A stretch of DNA of 64,000 bases from Gammaproteobacteria bacterium (GTDB lineage Bacteria; Pseudomonadota; Gammaproteobacteria; Eutrophobiales; Eutrophobiaceae): assembly GCA_965116495.1 (NCBI GenBank), contig OZ220696.1:2432001-2496000 (forward strand). The letters are read 5' to 3'. The notes beneath the pieces are model-generated. The model saw nothing but the letters and a program-made list of their open reading frames with translations. It had not been told where the DNA came from and ran no database searches. Shown here one piece after another: positions 43,121 through 50,437 of this stretch. Each line of letters starts with the position of its first letter. Position 1 is the first letter of the stretch. The translations under genes and the position numbers were made by a program.

Positions 43121-43316
43121 CTCCCGTTAGAGAAGCAAGTCAATGTAAGTCTGCCCTGGGATCGGACCGTTCAGTCGTTGATTTTTTCCACGGCAAGGGG
43201 CAAAGGGTGGGATTATAAATATCTTGTCAAATTAAATCAAACGTTGCATTGCACAAAATTATTTCCATAAACCCATTCTTGATAGGCTTTTCCCGATTTA
43301 TTAGACTGAACCGACC

Positions 43317-43643
43317 ATGTCTCAAATCCTGAAGAATCTGCCCGTGGGCAGTTATGCCGTCGTTTTCCCGTCCATCAGCACCGGCGTCGATGAAGAGGGC
43401 CATGAAAAAATGCTTGCTGAGTTGTACGGCCGTGTCCAGGAAATAGAGGGTTTCCTGGGCCTGGAATCCGCCTCAGACAGTCCATTCAAACTGGCTGTTG
43501 CCTATTTTGATTCGCTTGAGTCCATAAATGCCTGGAGACAAAACAGCGAGCACATTGCTGCCAAGAACAAGGCCCGTTCCACCTGGCTGGAAGACTGGCA
43601 GATAAGAATTTGCAGAATTGAGGAAACTTACGGCAAGTCGTAA
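43317..43643 (+). CDS. Antibiotic biosynthesis monooxygenase (ABM) family protein
   Basis: YAVVF.S, GFLG.ES, SLESI.AWR...EH..A. Confidence 0.8.
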   Translation: MSQILKNLPVGSYAVVFPSISTGVDEEGHEKMLAELYGRVQEIEGFLGLESASDSPFKLAVAYFDSLESINAWRQNSEHIAAKNKARSTWLEDWQIRICRIEETYGKS

Positions 43644-43665
43644 GAGTAATAAACCAGGAGGCAGG

Positions 43666-44850
43666 TCAGGCTAAGCCTCGTTCCTTCATCAGTCGACGGT
43701 GATGCAGCAGCGGCGGCAAGAGCAACAGGTAGGCAACAAAAAATAATACAATGCCGGCCCAAAGAATTCGGGAATAATCACCTTCCAGTAACAAGGTGGC
43801 GGCACCCGCCGGACCAATAGCCAACCCCGACATCTGGGCAGCAACAGCATAGTGCACCACCCGGCCTGTTCGCTCGAAGCTCGCCATGGAGGCCAATAAA
43901 AGAGGGTGACACATATTCCAGGCTAAGCAGTAGATACATACGGCTAGCGCATACATCAACGCAGAGAACTGACCAACTAATATGAGAAGAATCATTCCCC
44001 CTCCCGGCACGCCGATAGTCAGCAGTGAAGTTCTACCCAAACGGTGCGCCGCGACCGCTACAATTAGAGCGCCAACGATGCCGGATAATTGCGACAGGAA
44101 CAGACCATTAGCCACTTCCTGTTCATTAATTCCGGCATTGAGGCCAATAAGGAATAAATAAGCCCAGGTGCCGCCAATCGCCAGGAAATAAATGAACATG
44201 GCAAACACGGCCGCAACCCGCAAACCCATACTGATATCTACGGAGTCCGCTTCAGCAGGCTGGTGCTCTTCTCCTGATTCCGGCATGTGACGCAGGCAAA
44301 ACCAACCACCCGCAGCGAAAACCGCAAAGAAAACAATAATTCCTTCAAGACCTATGGTTGCCAACGCAGCAGGCATCACCCACAGGCTGAATGCGGAGTA
44401 AATCAGAACACCAATGATCAAATATCCAAGATTTCGATCCGGAAATCTGGTCAAACCCATAACAGTGAAAGTCAGCGAGATCAGCCCCCCGGATCCCAGG
44501 CCCACGAAGAAACGTGACAGGCCGAATGTTGTCAAATCATTGGCAGTCAGAGAGGCCAGGTTGCCTCCTACAAACAGTATTAATGAAACGTTCAGAAACT
44601 TTACCCAGTTAAACCGGGGAGCCCAAAAAGCCAGGAAGACCGAGGTTGCTGCAATACCCCAGACTTCCGTTGAAGCAATAATGCCCGCCTGTTGTTCACT
44701 GAAGCCGAGAGATTCCACCATGCCCTGAACAAAACCGGGCTGCACGATAAACACTGCTGCACCGATAACCGCGAGATAAATGGTAGAGAGAATGGAACGG
44801 GTACTGTTGACATCCACTGCAAGGTGGGAATTATGGAAGACTGCGTTCAT
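43666..44850 (-). CDS. MFS transporter
   Basis: About 12 TM segments, SRFFVGLG.G; same subfamily signature (..P.R..G) as 7364-8554. Confidence 0.85.
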   Translation of the reverse strand: MNAVFHNSHLAVDVNSTRSILSTIYLAVIGAAVFIVQPGFVQGMVESLGFSEQQAGIIASTEVWGIAATSVFLAFWAPRFNWVKFLNVSLILFVGGNLASLTANDLTTFGLSRFFVGLGSGGLISLTFTVMGLTRFPDRNLGYLIIGVLIYSAFSLWVMPAALATIGLEGIIVFFAVFAAGGWFCLRHMPESGEEHQPAEADSVDISMGLRVAAVFAMFIYFLAIGGTWAYLFLIGLNAGINEQEVANGLFLSQLSGIVGALIVAVAAHRLGRTSLLTIGVPGGGMILLILVGQFSALMYALAVCIYCLAWNMCHPLLLASMASFERTGRVVHYAVAAQMSGLAIGPAGAATLLLEGDYSRILWAGIVLFFVAYLLLLPPLLHHRRLMKERGLA

Positions 44851-45538
44851 TATAATGCTTGATGCCCACCCCTGGTTTTGCTGTTTTCAGAACGGCGCTA
44901 TTTTCAACGACTACCTGACCATTCACCAGAACGTACGGAATACCGGTGGAGGGCCGGGCCGGCGTTTCAAGTGTCGCATTGTCGCGCACCGGTTCAGGGT
45001 CAAAGATGGTGATGTCGGCATCCATACCCTGTTGTATGCGGCCCTTGTAGCGCATCTGGGGAACGCCGTTTTCCTCCAGAAACCGGGCCTGGTAGAGGCT
45101 TAACTTTGCCAGCAGTTCCGGCCAGCTCATCAGGTTTTCTTCGCGGTTAAGTCTCAGTACCCTTGCATGCGCGCCGGTCGTACGCGGGTGGGCGCCATTT
45201 TCCAGGTCCAGCGCGGTGGTCACGCCATCCCTGGCCAGCATGCGCTGGTTGAGCGGGAGGTCGGGGGCATGCACATGTGTATCGATAAATCCGGGGGCCA
45301 CGATCTTCCCCCGGGCATTTATAGTGCGTTGCGCTGTTATCTTTTCACCGGTGATGGTTGCGATTTTGCCGTTCCGGATGCCGATGTTGCGCTGCGCATC
45401 CAGTCTGGTTTCCGGATCGATAACCCGGCCGTTATTGATGGCAATCTCATAGACCACGGGGGATGAAGCCTGGTTCTGCGCGGCAAAGGCGATTAAAGGA
45501 ATGCAAAGAGCCAGAGCTGCTGACTTTGTCAAGACCAT
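44831..45538 (-). pseudogene. Secreted N-acyl-D-amino-acid deacylase-like amidohydrolase with large in-frame internal deletion
   Basis: GRVIDPET, APGFIDTHVH and DGVTTALDLE joined directly to HPR.TG...RVL ... KGRI..G.DADITIFDP; central barrel missing. Confidence 0.75.
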
Positions 45539-45567
45539 TTTACTGCCGCAGAAAGAGGACGATTTCG

Positions 45568-46263
45568 TCAGGCGGCCGCCCTGAGCTCGCATCGGATCGC
45601 TTCTTCGATCTCTGCTTTTTCGCGATCATAGTCCTTTGCCAATTCAGCGACCGTCTCACCGGCTTTGTATCTTTCAGCAATAACTTCGGTGGCAAGTCCC
45701 GTTCCGGTAATAACCGGCCGTCCTGCAGATAAGGTCGGGTCAATGACTACCATGGCCGGAGCCTCATTAATATTGCTGCGTGTGAAAGGATAGAGTTTTA
45801 TGGGAATTCCTTGGCTATCTCGTTCGATACGACGTAGAGCGGCCTCGATTATGTCTCGCATTGCCAATTGCCCTGCACTGCTGATATTAACCAACTTTCC
45901 GTATTGTTCAATGAACAGGTCAAGCCCATCTGTTTGAAGCTGCTTACTAATCAGTGGATACAATTTATCGAATATATCCCGCGTGTTTTCTCGAAGATAG
46001 TCAATGGCGCGCCGAACTTTGGGCATCGGTACCGCGTGTTTACGACGGATGGCTGCGAGCACATGAAGTTCGACGAGATTGTGAAACGAATATGCTAAAG
46101 GATTAGTATCCGCCACCTTTATCAGGGCCGGGGAAAAATCTTTGCCGGCAGCCCAATATCGGACCGTCGACCTGGGTAGATTCAGGTAGTGCGCGACCTC
46201 GGCAGCGGAGTACGCCGGAAGTTCACGAAGATTGGATCGTGTGTTGTTTGCTTGCTTCACCAT
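45568..46263 (-). CDS. DUF433-domain antitoxin (VapB45-like)
   Basis: N-terminal HTH PAYS.AE.A.YL, SF.NLVE..V, IDP..SAGRPVI.GT. Confidence 0.85.
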   Translation of the reverse strand: MVKQANNTRSNLRELPAYSAAEVAHYLNLPRSTVRYWAAGKDFSPALIKVADTNPLAYSFHNLVELHVLAAIRRKHAVPMPKVRRAIDYLRENTRDIFDKLYPLISKQLQTDGLDLFIEQYGKLVNISSAGQLAMRDIIEAALRRIERDSQGIPIKLYPFTRSNINEAPAMVVIDPTLSAGRPVITGTGLATEVIAERYKAGETVAELAKDYDREKAEIEEAIRCELRAAA

Positions 46264-46563
46264 GAGGTTCTCTCGCTGGCAAAGTTTAGCATGAATTATA
46301 AGGTTACCGTTTTGAAACTATGTTGTTTTTCCAATGAATGTCGTGGACGACGTCAAGATTATTCTGATGTTCCTGGAGGGGGAATAGAAGCGGTTTTGTA
46401 ACTGCTTGTTATTGCAGAACAATGTTTTCTTTTATCTAGGTTGCCCAACGATTTCCACAACATTGATGAGTTTTATTAGGTCCTACAAGGCATGTTTCAA
46501 ACTAACGAGGTTCCAGAATCCCCGCGACAAATATGTACAAAGAGCAAGGTTACACTTCTTAAT

Positions 46564-47682
46564 TTATCCAAAAAAATCCTTTAGGTCACATGCCTTACCA
46601 AATGCTTCAATTTTCCATTCGCTTTGCGAAGCCGCTGTTTTACGTAGTCGAATCTTACCGGGGGATATATTTACATTTCTTAGCGTAGCACCAGTATTAT
46701 CTATAGTTTTTTCTACGGCTCTAACTCTCAGTTTTTTGGGTCTGCGAACAGAATTATGACTAGAAGTAGTTATATATGCGTTAGAGGTTAATGATAGTAT
46801 TCGTGACGCATCTTCCCTAGTTGGTATCTCACGACCACCTAATCGCCAGGGTGTAAGCAATGCAATCGGTTCTTTTTTTAACAGTTCTCTCCATACTCGG
46901 TCCACATGTGCATTCTTGGAGCCATGATGTGGAATCTTGAATACAGAAGCCTCACATTTCGGTTTTTCTTCTGCATCTAGTATTTGTAACCACCCAGTTT
47001 TTTCCATATCTGAGCCGAGTAGAATAGCGGTTTTATTGACAATAAATAACAAAACAACTGCCGCTTGGTTAGGTGTTAAGGTTGGAATATGTCTTTTTGT
47101 TTCTCCTACTAGTGGAATAAGCTGGCCTACTGTTTGTAGAAACAAATCGAATACTGAATCGGAAGGAGAAAGAGACCAGATCTCGCAATCATATTTATTG
47201 AAAATTCGACGGTTAGCCAAAGCATGAATAGGTTTAGTACTCTTTTCATGAAGTAAATTAAACACCTGATATAGTTCCTGCATACCGGAGCGAGTAGTTG
47301 ACATCGAGCGGTTCTCGACTGCTCCAATCATCGCTAGAAATTCTTGCTCACACAAAGCGGCTGAACAACAGAAATTTGCTTCAGAACAAGTTTCTACAAG
47401 CTTTCCCATACCACGTATATGATCATCATGCCAGTGAGTAGCAATGATGAGACGTACATCCTTCGCGGGGTCTACACCTAAACTGCGGAGGTAGGACAAT
47501 GCAACTGGTATTTTTTTCTTGTCAAGACAAGAATCGATAATTACCCAATTGCAATTCCCGATATGTAAGATTATGCATTCTCCATAACCTGGCCCGGCCA
47601 GCGTTAATTCTATCTGATCAGGTTTGGGAGGAGTTATTTCTTCAGTCAGTCTTTGATTGACTCTACTATTCCCTGTGCCCAT
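46564..47682 (-). CDS. MBL-fold metallo-hydrolase (ComEC/Rec2-like putative nuclease)
   Basis: GYGECII, IDS, THWHDDHI.G (HxHxDH), LLGSD, KIPHHGS; no TM segments. Confidence 0.85.
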   Translation of the reverse strand: MGTGNSRVNQRLTEEITPPKPDQIELTLAGPGYGECIILHIGNCNWVIIDSCLDKKKIPVALSYLRSLGVDPAKDVRLIIATHWHDDHIRGMGKLVETCSEANFCCSAALCEQEFLAMIGAVENRSMSTTRSGMQELYQVFNLLHEKSTKPIHALANRRIFNKYDCEIWSLSPSDSVFDLFLQTVGQLIPLVGETKRHIPTLTPNQAAVVLLFIVNKTAILLGSDMEKTGWLQILDAEEKPKCEASVFKIPHHGSKNAHVDRVWRELLKKEPIALLTPWRLGGREIPTREDASRILSLTSNAYITTSSHNSVRRPKKLRVRAVEKTIDNTGATLRNVNISPGKIRLRKTAASQSEWKIEAFGKACDLKDFFG

Positions 47683-48242
47683 TCTTTTCCTTCAGATATA
47701 TCCCAAGTGCTCATCAAAGGTAGATCGCGAAAGACTATTTGTGATACTCGTCGTTTATTGCCACTTGCTAAGTTCTCATAACCGATTACCCAACGAAAAA
47801 TACTTCCCGGGCAAATACGTTTGTGATCGTTTTCAGCTATTTCTTCCAAAGGAATTGTAGCTTCCTCATCTTCTTGAGTAGCTCCAGCAGTGAGATCCAC
47901 TAACCTAGCGGTAAATTCATCCCCGGTTATTTCCAGGACATAACCTTCCCATTCTTGAAGTGCATGAAATGAGTTAGATGGCTCACTCCGCAAACCTCTC
48001 GCCTTGGCAGGGAAATTAATAACAGGATTTTCTTCATAAATGGGCCACCTAGAATTCAGACCACTGTCAAAAGATTTATACATACTGTCAGTATCACGTA
48101 CTATCGGGCGCCTATGTTCCAGCACACTACCAATTCCTTCTAGATGTTTCTTATTTAATGACATGTAGGAGTAATCGTAGATGCTAGACGAATCTTGGAA
48201 TTCATTGCTAGAAAGGTCAGGCACAGTTAGGAAAAAGTACAT
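47646..48242 (-). CDS. Hypothetical protein: low-complexity N-terminus, beta-rich C-terminal domain
   Basis: AGGAG RBS 8 bp after the upstream stop; LQEWEGYV...EFTARLVDL...G.IF.W.IG. Confidence 0.75.
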   Translation of the reverse strand: MYFFLTVPDLSSNEFQDSSSIYDYSYMSLNKKHLEGIGSVLEHRRPIVRDTDSMYKSFDSGLNSRWPIYEENPVINFPAKARGLRSEPSNSFHALQEWEGYVLEITGDEFTARLVDLTAGATQEDEEATIPLEEIAENDHKRICPGSIFRWVIGYENLASGNKRRVSQIVFRDLPLMSTWDISEGKEWAQGIVESIKD

Positions 48243-48250
48243 ATCTACTC

Positions 48251-48940
48251 CTATGTCAAAGACATTACGTGATCAATAATTTTATCTGATCGCTTTAAAG
48301 ATTCATCAAAATTCAACTCTAGCAATTTTATAATTTCGCTGGAAATTGCCTGACTATCCTGGTTCTCAAATTCGTAATGGTCATTAACTTTAATTGCTAC
48401 CCCTACACGTTCTTCTTCAATTTCACTCGATGGTCCTACAGTTACATTTATTTTCCCACCGCGTGGCCTGCCCTCTGGGTCTACCTGTGTCATAGTAAGA
48501 GAAGTCATTCCGCTAGGCGCGTCACCGAGTTCAATTTCTTTTCCCCAATCTCCCCATGGTTCAATAGGAGACAATAGTCTACCGAGTTGCATTCGTTTAT
48601 CAAAGTTCCACAAACAATAATGTACATCATAGTTTATCCCTATAGCTCTGAGTGGTGTATGGGGCAGCTTTTCTCGAAAAATACGTACAGTTAAATCACA
48701 CAAACGGACATAGGGAGATTGAGTCGTACCCAGTATAAATCTATCAGGATGAACCTCTAGATTAATCCAGTCTGCATTGAAAGATGTGAGCTGTCCATGG
48801 GCAATTTCCAATCTTGCGTTTTTCGCGATACTTTCAGGAATAAGTTGATTCCAGCCAAACCACGACGGTGTGAAGATAGAAGGGTTAAAACTACCCAGCA
48901 TAACAAGCGTCACAGAGGAATATTGGGGGTCAACCCTCAT
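48251..48940 (-). CDS. Hypothetical protein (possibly TIGR04255-like)
   Basis: 229-aa ORF heading a compact operon; G.FNP.IF.P.WF, LPHTP..A.GIN and NDH motifs. Confidence 0.75.
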   Translation of the reverse strand: MRVDPQYSSVTLVMLGSFNPSIFTPSWFGWNQLIPESIAKNARLEIAHGQLTSFNADWINLEVHPDRFILGTTQSPYVRLCDLTVRIFREKLPHTPLRAIGINYDVHYCLWNFDKRMQLGRLLSPIEPWGDWGKEIELGDAPSGMTSLTMTQVDPEGRPRGGKINVTVGPSSEIEEERVGVAIKVNDHYEFENQDSQAISSEIIKLLELNFDESLKRSDKIIDHVMSLT

Positions 48941-48962
48941 TTTGCGAATATTTCTTCTTAGA

Positions 48963-49030
48963 ACACTATTTGCGGAGCATACATATCAATAAACTAAAAC
49001 AAGATGATACCACACACTATTGCGGAACAT
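48963..49030. promoter_or_regulatory. Imperfect 17-18 bp direct repeat upstream of the three-gene operon
   Basis: acactatttgcggagcat (48963-48980) and acactattgcggaacat (49014-49030). Confidence 0.5.
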
Positions 49031-49214
49031 TTGAGAGTCATCTACCAAGGATGCGATATTAGCACCCATATTTCTCTTCTTGCAAACCCCAATCAACCAC
49101 ATAGTTATGTTTATAAGGTGACTTATTCATCCATATACTATTGAAATAATGTTGGGAAGATTATATCTTAATGTTAAGAACTGAATGATATCAATAAGTT
49201 ATTTGGTATCTTCT

Positions 49215-49233
49215 ATTCCCTCTCCCAGCACCA
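49215..49233 (+). other. tRNA 3'-end remnant (att-like site)
   Basis: ATT-CCCTC-TCCCAGC-A-CCA fits T-loop end + 5-nt T stem + 7-nt acceptor strand + discriminator + CCA; sits at the edge of the AT-rich islet. Confidence 0.55.
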
Positions 49234-49357
49234 TATCCCAACTGTTCTACCTTGGCATCCTCATGAATCACCCTTCACCGGACTCTACTTTAATTGACAG
49301 AGTCGCCACGCTTTTCAACTAGGCGGAGTCCTGGTGGCTTTTTTACTGGATTCCTGG

Positions 49358-50437
49358 CTACCTTACCGGCAAGGTCAGCGCCGGCACCTGGGGGTTGGTC
49401 TGACCGGCCTGCAGGTCAAACAGTTGACGTAACAGCATGAATGTGGATTTGGATTCCAGGTCGGTATCTTCGATATAAAACCAGTTCCCCCGGTAGTGGG
49501 TGGCTATGTAGGCGTTTTCCGGCCGTTCGTCGCTGGTGTGTATCTTGAACAAGCGTCCTGCGGGGGTTTCATTCCAGTCGAATCTTCCACCATCTTCAGT
49601 CCTGGTGACCGTCACGAGTTCGTGGTGGTGACTGGACGGCGCCTCGACGTTGTGTGACAGATAATACAGCAGGCCCGAGATGGATCGGGGACGCACGGTC
49701 CACTGGGTATTGTCCATATTCAGAAAATCCGTATTCAGGGTGAATTCATCCTTGCCGCGGTCGAGTTCCAGCAATCTGTAGACCTGATCAATCTGATGTT
49801 TGTAGACATTATTATCTCTGACAAGCTTGATAACGATACTTCCCTCTTCGTTTGTGCCGATTTCAATGAGCTGGTTTTTCTGTAACGCGTGCAGTGCGTC
49901 CATCAGGTCACCGAATTCTTCATGGTCCGGCTCCTGTGCAGGTGTCGGTCCTGACGCATTGGGCGCGTTGTAAAGATTATTCATCCTTTCAAAACACAAT
50001 CCGAACACCCGGCTGATATTCCAGCCCGATTGCGTCAGTACCAGGATGGCCTCCAGTTGCAGGGGGCTGAGGATACTCTTGAGCAGGTCTTCGCCCCGCA
50101 GCGGCGTGTAACTGATGGTCGGTTTGTCGGTATAGGCAACCCCCACGCCGGGGCTCAGGGTATCGCCGCTGCCGAGGTTTACATCAGAGTTCAGCCCTGC
50201 GTTTGCGCCCAGGGACAGACTGGCCGTTACGCTGCCTATTTCCAGGAAAAAAGTCACATCACGGTAGCGCATGCGCACCAGGTTCTGCAGCATCTGCTCG
50301 TTGATCGAGGCGATGATGGCCTCGTTATAGGCGGGGTGGGTACGTGCGAGAGCCTGCGGGCCGAATGCCGACTGGCAGCCGGACAGCATCGCAACCAATG
50401 TCAGTAAAAGGAAAGTGTATGTGATTTGATAGCGCAT
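49358..50437 (-). CDS. Hypothetical lipoprotein
   Basis: Signal peptide with LSGC lipobox; LQNLVR.RY and PTISYTPL.G motifs. Confidence 0.75.
   Translation of the reverse strand: MRYQITYTFLLLTLVAMLSGCQSAFGPQALARTHPAYNEAIIASINEQMLQNLVRMRYRDVTFFLEIGSVTASLSLGANAGLNSDVNLGSGDTLSPGVGVAYTDKPTISYTPLRGEDLLKSILSPLQLEAILVLTQSGWNISRVFGLCFERMNNLYNAPNASGPTPAQEPDHEEFGDLMDALHALQKNQLIEIGTNEEGSIVIKLVRDNNVYKHQIDQVYRLLELDRGKDEFTLNTDFLNMDNTQWTVRPRSISGLLYYLSHNVEAPSSHHHELVTVTRTEDGGRFDWNETPAGRLFKIHTSDERPENAYIATHYRGNWFYIEDTDLESKSTFMLLRQLFDLQAGQTNPQVPALTLPVR

Follow-up and report, generated by a model that had tools for sequence, protein, structure and literature searches.

Among the anti-phage systems reported with DefensePredictor (PMC13092281), DS-42 is a trio of genes from Escherichia coli ECOR29 (WP_249925928, WP_001024069, and WP_001198055), which the available part of the supplement lists as PRO1, defensive, and replicated. 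Validation in that study used native promoters, a low-copy plasmid, strain MG1655, and a panel of 24 phages; table S7 holds a single row for DS-42, phage Bas1, with a -log efficiency of plating of 1.10 and smaller plaques, i.e., about 12-fold fewer plaques. Table S8 assigns a metallo-β-lactamase (MBL) domain to gene C, a CHS5_N label (78%) to gene B, and nothing to gene A, and the supplement gives two homologues for DS-42C, LmuA-hydrolase and Avs1A. The available main text of the paper neither mentions DS-42 nor offers a mechanism, and a literature search from 2025 onward found no later paper naming the system. In this study, we analyzed a three-gene operon in a 64,000-nt stretch of contig OZ220696.1 (positions 2,432,001-2,496,000; position 1 is its first letter), hereafter the window, and found it to be a distant new member of this already reported system.

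The assignment is based on gene-for-gene homology in the same order: each of the three genes, similar in size to its DS-42 counterpart, is homologous to it. Comparison of the window proteins with DS-42A, DS-42B, and DS-42C by blastp gave identities of 24% (E 1e-8), 26% (7e-7), and 34% (2e-48), these being two-sequence E-values. The family hidden Markov models (HMMs) scored the same three proteins at 83-92, 47, and 250 bits, and hhalign against a small enterobacterial profile gave probabilities of 99.8, 98.1, and 100% for genes 1, 2, and 3; the reciprocal score for gene 2 was weak (22 bits). As in DS-42, the third gene encodes a ComA/ComEC-like MBL hydrolase and the trio is mobile cargo. In contrast to DS-42, which is carried by a lambdoid prophage, the window trio lies on a chromosomal islet, and its gene 2 keeps a C-terminal helix, unlike DS-42B. 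Judged from these sequence comparisons, the window operon is very probably (roughly 85%) a DS-42-family anti-phage cassette. An earlier note on this DNA had proposed a defence cassette of a new, unnamed kind. The defence role is supported by the co-occurrence of the genes, their context, and the validated E. coli relative, whereas the claim of novelty is refuted by the match to DS-42, the kind of finding that the note itself had named as decisive. Its expectation of no PADLOC match holds for genes 1 and 2, which had none in Pfam, NCBIfam, PADLOC, or PHROGs.

The trio is a fixed unit that is widespread, though rare per genome sample. A scan of a genome collection with a gene-2 alignment returned 220 relatives, of which the best 80 were kept (the 80 loci); because these were chosen by similarity ranking, their taxonomic list is biased, and loci from related organisms are not independent. 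All three genes stand in order in 73 of the 80, some of the 73 being broken or cut by a contig end; two others lack gene 1, one lacks gene 3, and four have gene 2 alone. According to the record titles, the 80 loci come from Latescibacterota, Acidobacteriota, Spirochaetia, Chloroflexota, Proteobacteria, and others, and many of these lineages are presumably sponge symbionts. Among 43 metagenome contigs found by gene 1, the full trio is present in 29, the contig edge intervenes in 11, and two near-identical ones carry other partners; the remaining one is a weak match. Of 28 viral loci found by gene 3, 22 are true family members, six weak matches of 23-25 bits being left out, and genes 1 and 2 are present in all 19 with enough upstream DNA (two duplicate pairs included). 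One plasmid each of Adhaeribacter and Pantoea also carries the trio, and the E. coli-type gene 3 had no match in GenBank phages. Unbiased draws gave gene 2 in 6 of 400 genomes (within the phylum) and gene 1 in 4 of 400 (within the phylum) and 7 of 399 (within the class; one of the seven genomes is unpublished, and no other result depends on it). When the phylum was drawn again and searched with a wider profile, only the four trio loci already known were recovered. A DNA search detected the cassette in 17 of 5,426 E. coli genomes, two of which were inspected, and the gene-1 family comprises 2,532 clusters at 50% identity (E up to 0.001). The earlier note had expected a conserved gene 1-gene 2 pair with the third gene swapped among effectors. 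The pair is indeed conserved, but the MBL gene is kept in nearly all complete loci.

The surroundings of the cassette were assessed from neighbour clusters present in at least two of the 80 loci (44 representatives of 75 clusters and a large methylase were annotated). A defence-type neighbour was found in 39 of the 80 loci and no recognised one among the annotated clusters in 41, counts that come without a background rate and from loci that are not independent. In 14 of the 80 the cassette is located between the DUF499/DUF7680 and DUF1156/PLD-SNF2 genes of a BREX-related locus, and in eight it is beside type III Mod or Res genes. Nested back-up nucleases are known from such BREX-related loci, and the available section on auxiliary effectors does not name an MBL cassette (PMC12839542). 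In prophages the trio is positioned between antiterminator Q and the lysis genes, and at L209 between P2 gpA and the portal gene, a site that is an anti-phage hotspot (PMC9122126). These distributions also bear on the idea that the cassette is an addiction or stress module, a selfish toxin-antitoxin unit stabilising islands and prophages whose protection against phages would be incidental or absent here. Its patchy occurrence across many phyla (4-7 of about 400 sampled genomes), its carriage by prophages and plasmids, the 41 loci without a recognised defence neighbour, and the small effect of DS-42, just about 12-fold on one listed phage (PMC13092281), would all fit such a module. However, DS-42 protection was measured and replicated in that study, and insertion inside BREX-related loci and the P2 hotspot is repeated, so that we regard pure addiction as unlikely. 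Within BREX-related loci, a run of TIR, SLOG, and ThsB-TIR genes directly precedes the trio at L028:873-4950 and L031:2335-4926, so that several cassettes are stacked at one site. In another such locus, a 927-residue frame (L053:6312-9095) begins with the N-terminal part of the MBL protein and clusters with DUF1156 methylases; it is perhaps a deletion fusion.

Gene 3 matches Pfam Lactamase_B (E 2.9e-7) and has the metal site H83-x-H85-x-D87-H88, D225, and H252-H253-G-S, conserved in 99-100% of 91 aligned sequences, and its best PADLOC matches are the MBL proteins of DRT and Lamassu loci. According to the available parts of PMC12799240 (Tuck et al.), such MBL proteins are DNases whose two insertions keep them closed until they are cleaved by a partner protease, the Hachiman MBL relative HamM is also a DNase, and nuclease and protease are always found together in the gated systems. 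Like HamM, Avs1a, the Lamassu/DRT MBL proteins, and CanC described there, gene 3 encodes a ComEC-like soluble MBL protein with identical metal ligands, in agreement with the earlier note, which had read a full HxHxDH...D...HHGS site and no ComEC membrane domain. When compared by eye with HamM (sequence from table S1 of PMC12799240), it has extra stretches at both gating positions, shorter than those of HamM: about 24 residues before the conserved S132-G133-x-x-E136, and a median of 30 between SP and PN. By eye, G133-x-x-E136 corresponds to the residues that follow the first cut site of HamM; in the pairwise alignment, DS-42C lacks the S-G-x-x-E motif. Unlike the gated pairs, the cassette has no trypsin-like or caspase protease, and no protease gene was found beside it in the window or among the recurring clustered neighbours of the 80 loci. 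Gene 3 is best described as a predicted DNase, a ComEC-type nuclease that appears related to the protease-gated nucleases. Three more specific labels were rejected: ComEC itself (the protein has 372 residues, MBL matches only, no membrane channel domain, and scores far below the cut-offs), β-lactamase (scores far below the cut-offs), and 6A-MBL (NF058524; 28.6 bits against a 220-bit cut-off). It also differs from Avs1a, scoring 17.6 bits against a 420-bit cut-off.

The relationship to HamM, Avs1a, and CanC raises the question of whether gene 3 could be a pro-nuclease of the same type, cut at its insertions by a protease from outside the cassette (host or phage), with genes 1 and 2 acting as adaptor or shield. 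Its membership of the same MBL group, the supplement entry that gives LmuA-hydrolase and Avs1A as relatives homologous to DS-42C (PMC13092281), and the position of G133, which by eye matches the residue following the first cut site of HamM, are in line with this. We nevertheless think it unlikely, since no protease gene recurs beside the cassette among the clustered neighbours of the 80 loci, genes 1 and 2 have no protease match by family or fold, and nuclease and protease always occur together according to Tuck et al. (PMC12799240).

The predicted structure of the gene 2 product has residues 1-76 with pLDDT (predicted local distance difference test) scores below 50, followed by a confident β-barrel and a C-terminal helix, giving three parts: a disordered N-tail (about residues 1-88), a predicted OB-fold barrel (about 91-173), and the helix. 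The disordered N-terminus and compact β-rich domain anticipated in the earlier note are thus both seen. The N-tail has a high content of Ala, Ser, Pro, Thr, and Arg, and relatives share 13% identity in it, versus 55% in the rest of the protein. OB folds occupy the top rows of the structural matches of the barrel throughout (Z 6.2-6.8, root-mean-square deviation 2.2-5.1, 57-74 residues, all below the Z 8 mark), among them IF5A (Z 6.8, deviation 2.3, 62 residues), cold-shock domains, EF-P, and PAN. CHS5_N also appears (Z 5.1), which explains the CHS5_N label given to gene B in PMC13092281. In one locus (L163:4485-6068), homologues of genes 2 and 3 are fused in a 527-residue frame with a normal gene 1 ahead, and on an Acetobacter plasmid (L109:3932-4333) a 133-residue gene-2 barrel lies among methylase genes, with genes 1 and 3 undetected. 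We consider gene 2 a putative antitoxin or nuclease partner.

Which of these two roles it plays separates the principal mechanisms. In ComEC, an OB domain accompanies the MBL domain. Similarly, the trio could be a sensor-activator-effector system in which gene 3 is self-inhibited by its own insertions and switched on by genes 1 and 2; the OB barrel would then be the subunit that binds nucleic acid and brings phage DNA or RNA to the nuclease. The matches of the barrel to cold-shock, IF5A/EF-P, and PAN OB folds (Z 6.2-6.8) are compatible with this, as are the facts that barrel and nuclease are never apart in viral loci and are fused in L163, that gene 3 has stretches at both HamM gating positions, and that DS-42 was clonable under its native promoter (PMC13092281). 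However, a remote gene-1 relative serves an ordinary antitoxin-toxin pair (L121, below), which fits gene 1 as a helper of gene 2 better than as an activator of gene 3; the S-G-x-x-E motif is absent from DS-42C; and the putative gating of gene 3 is based on comparison by eye. An activator role for genes 1 and 2 is thus a doubtful, though real, possibility.

Gene 1 is predicted (pLDDT 90) to form a large antiparallel sheet backed by helices, with two similar halves, and the motifs pointed out previously (G.FNP.IF.P.WF and HTP..A.GIN) are present. Foldseek returned low template-modelling scores to S-adenosylmethionine (AdoMet) decarboxylase, and a VIA search gave guanidino kinases and AdoMet decarboxylase as its best matches (Z 7.6-7.8), below the trust threshold of the tool; no SecB or PsbP/Mog1 chain was among the 50 VIA matches listed, and no SecB family match was found in Pfam or NCBIfam. 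A search with 122 gene-1 relatives gave nothing meaningful in NCBIfam or among PDB sequences. The guanidino kinases have an acidic catalytic motif, which has no counterpart among the conserved residues of gene 1, and this candidate was set aside. The top ESM Atlas cluster for gene 1 (0.97) carries the automatic name TIGR04255 with a low recognition score. The TIGR04255 HMM matched none of the 122 family members at E 0.1 (cut-off 30 bits), and hhalign gave a probability of 1.4% (P 0.036) with the motif in register, one of 13 template rows being a wrong gene. A helper or sensor role for gene 1 is putative.

Remote gene-1 relatives (25-60 bits) have partners other than gene 2 and the MBL protein, and gene 2 changes as well. 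One of them (L121; 52 bits, E 5e-13) is immediately followed by a gene pair made up of an Xre/MbcA/ParS antitoxin, N-terminally extended by about 125 residues, and a RES toxin. At L122 and L177, the remote gene 1 is accompanied by a short gene and an unclassified protein of 290-310 residues, at L188 by two unclassified genes, and at L123 by no obvious partner; there was no match to the remote gene 1 of L122 in plasmids or to that of L177 in viral contigs. Unclassified proteins of 270-310 residues (L122:4279-5145, L177:2102-3025, and L125:2905-3708), located behind remote gene-1 or TIGR04255 genes, share a QG-D...SCD/HDCD motif, have no Pfam or NCBIfam match, and are candidate effectors. The TIGR04255-led loci among the relatives have the same three-part layout: the first gene is about 230-260 residues with a similar internal motif, the second has a low-complexity N-tail, and the third is a variable effector, with an Xre-HTH domain in one second gene and an HNH domain in one third gene. 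In contrast to their first genes, gene 1 does not score on the TIGR04255 HMM. The genome of the window has such a cassette of its own (G000:C1:3262503-3264494; L127:1486-3494), with a true TIGR04255 gene, a 243-residue gene whose N-terminal part is of low complexity, and a 175-residue gene that is unclassified, and it is common to several same-genus genomes; the TIGR04255 match in this genome is a different gene from gene 1.

The cassette also resembles the toxin-antitoxin-chaperone systems HigBAC, MqsRAC, and CmdTAC (abstract of bioRxiv 2024.02.24.581848) in its proposed three-part logic, which joins a helper to a tail-bearing, partly disordered partner and an enzymatic effector, and in its anti-phage role. 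It is unlike them in its gene order, with the helper first and the effector last, and in having a gene 1 for which no SecB match was found. In SecB-type systems the chaperone-addiction tail is C-terminal, whereas the disorder of gene 2 is N-terminal and its C-terminus is a confident helix. Three-gene conflict systems with PsbP/MOG1-like or SecB "chaperones" are reportedly treated by Burroughs and Aravind (2023) or Nicastro et al. (2023), and part of the modularity pattern of gene 1 may already be in print.

The Xre-RES pair of L121, the TIGR04255 layouts, the fast-evolving N-tail, the tight translational coupling, and the L163 fusion point to a toxin-antitoxin logic. The likeliest mechanism, each step of which we infer, has a helper or sensor, a labile antitoxin, and a nuclease toxin, a layout also put forward in the earlier note; we would place it a little short of even odds. 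In this scheme, gene 2 would be kept soluble and stable by gene 1, bound to its disordered N-tail, and would itself clamp and block gene 3 with its OB barrel. The trigger would be either a phage protein that competes for gene 1 or a shut-off of host expression that ends the resupply of gene 2; host proteases would then remove gene 2, and the freed nuclease would arrest the infected cell. More broadly, and more tentatively, gene 1 may represent a non-SecB class of toxin-antitoxin helpers that sense phage through N-terminal addiction tails and serve pairs with MBL nucleases, RES, HNH, or other toxins, the DS-42 branch being one in which an OB-fold antitoxin controls a nuclease of the gated type in a protease-free manner.

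Several observations weigh against the assignment or this mechanism. The window copy is known from its sequence and is just 24-34% identical to DS-42, whose own protection is weak, with one phage row from a 24-phage panel (PMC13092281). In four of the 80 loci and on one plasmid, gene 2 stands alone, with neither gene 1 nor gene 3, and the context counts lack a background rate. The clear toxin-antitoxin case is L121 alone, where a transposase interrupts gene 1. A DNA-binding autorepressor domain is absent from gene 2, and its modelled OB fold would suit a nucleic-acid-binding activator equally. Among the structural matches of gene 1 there is no clear chaperone (the best, at Z 7.6-7.8, are guanidino kinases and AdoMet decarboxylase), and it is only weakly tied to TIGR04255 (none of 122 by HMM, hhalign P 0.036).

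The three coupled minus-strand genes described in the earlier note are all open (Table 1). Genes 1 and 2 are spaced by 8 nt, with an AGGAG that overlaps the stop codon of gene 1, and genes 2 and 3 overlap. Among 76 relatives, the end of gene 2 reads GTGA in 49, ATGA in 3, and TTGA in 2, so that its stop codon shares bases with a start codon. As the window has CTGA where the relatives have GTGA, the true start of gene 3 may be the CTG at 47649 (361 residues) instead of the ATG at 47682. No paralogue of the operon genes was found in their own genome.

Table 1. Features of the cassette and its borders in the window
Feature	Position	Strand	Remark
Gene 1 (DS-42A homologue), 229 aa	48251-48940	minus	intact frame; putative helper/sensor
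Gene 2 (DS-42B homologue), 198 aa	47646-48242	minus	intact frame; putative antitoxin or nuclease partner
Gene 3 (DS-42C homologue), 372 aa from ATG	46564-47682	minus	soluble ComEC-type MBL-fold metallohydrolase, predicted DNase
Direct repeat copy 1, imperfect 17/18 bp, upstream of gene 1	49014-49030	minus	marginal significance
Direct repeat copy 2, imperfect 17/18 bp	48963-48980	minus	one mismatch and one gap relative to copy 1
tRNA-3'-end-like stretch, upstream edge	49205-49232	plus	contains inverted arm 49210-49225
Second arm of 16-nt inverted pair, downstream edge	46375-46390	plus	94% complementary to 49210-49225
Insertion, approximate extent	46330-49340		flanks only ~90 bp apart in same-genus genome G001
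DUF433/HTH antitoxin-like gene, flanking, outside cassette	45568-46263	minus	kept at the empty site in G001

The AT-rich islet noticed earlier is evident: the GC content of the operon stretch is 0.408 against 0.547 genome-wide (40.8% versus 54.7%), only 0.23% of 2.4-kb windows of the genome are equally low, and the third-position GC of the operon genes is 0.30-0.34. Other border features fared less uniformly. The direct repeat upstream of gene 1 is present, but its significance is marginal (13 of 300 shuffles score equally well under strict scoring; in a laxer test, which aligned other stretches, 127 of 200 were as good), and its core is found in none of the 80 related loci at the equivalent stretch. 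Likewise, the tRNA-end remnant exists as a stretch, but its resemblance to tRNA-Leu(CAA) is weak and no tRNA gene was found within the 64-kb window. This stretch contributes one arm of a 16-nt inverted pair that brackets the cassette, the downstream arm of which was absent from the earlier note. Words resembling the tRNA-end-like arms recur at G000:C1:1217014-1217040, among toxin-antitoxin-like genes, and at 4032910-4032941.

Same-genus genomes define the insertion site. In G001, the lipoprotein and DUF433 genes are about 90 bp apart and the cassette is absent, and in G002, G005, and G016 the lipoprotein gene is directly joined to the gene preceding the ATP synthase operon. The interval 43265-49358 is variably filled in other genomes of the genus, and at the DNA level the operon has one weak 250-bp match (G006), and otherwise none, among 18 of them. 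These junctions identify 43.3-49.3 kb as an accessory hotspot, and the cassette as a separate insertion in it. The flanking antitoxin gene of the earlier note is the DUF433/HTH gene, which is followed by only about 10 overlapping codons and then a stop; as the same short remnant is present in G001, its partner, presumably a toxin, looks lost. Next to it, the amidohydrolase frame at 44831-45592 matches its family at the two ends only, likely through an internal deletion. Among these nearest genes, the description of the region as full of pseudogenes corresponds to this amidohydrolase and to a DUF433 gene without an intact partner.

Taken by itself, the window locus adds a further copy to a cassette that is already widespread. 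Its wider meaning lies in DS-42, a validated but unexplained system whose genes A and B had no assigned domains, and which now has a broad family, an anatomy, and two opposed mechanisms. If the helper model is true, the toxin-antitoxin-chaperone logic would extend beyond SecB, and there would be a second mode of control for MBL nucleases that other systems open by protease.

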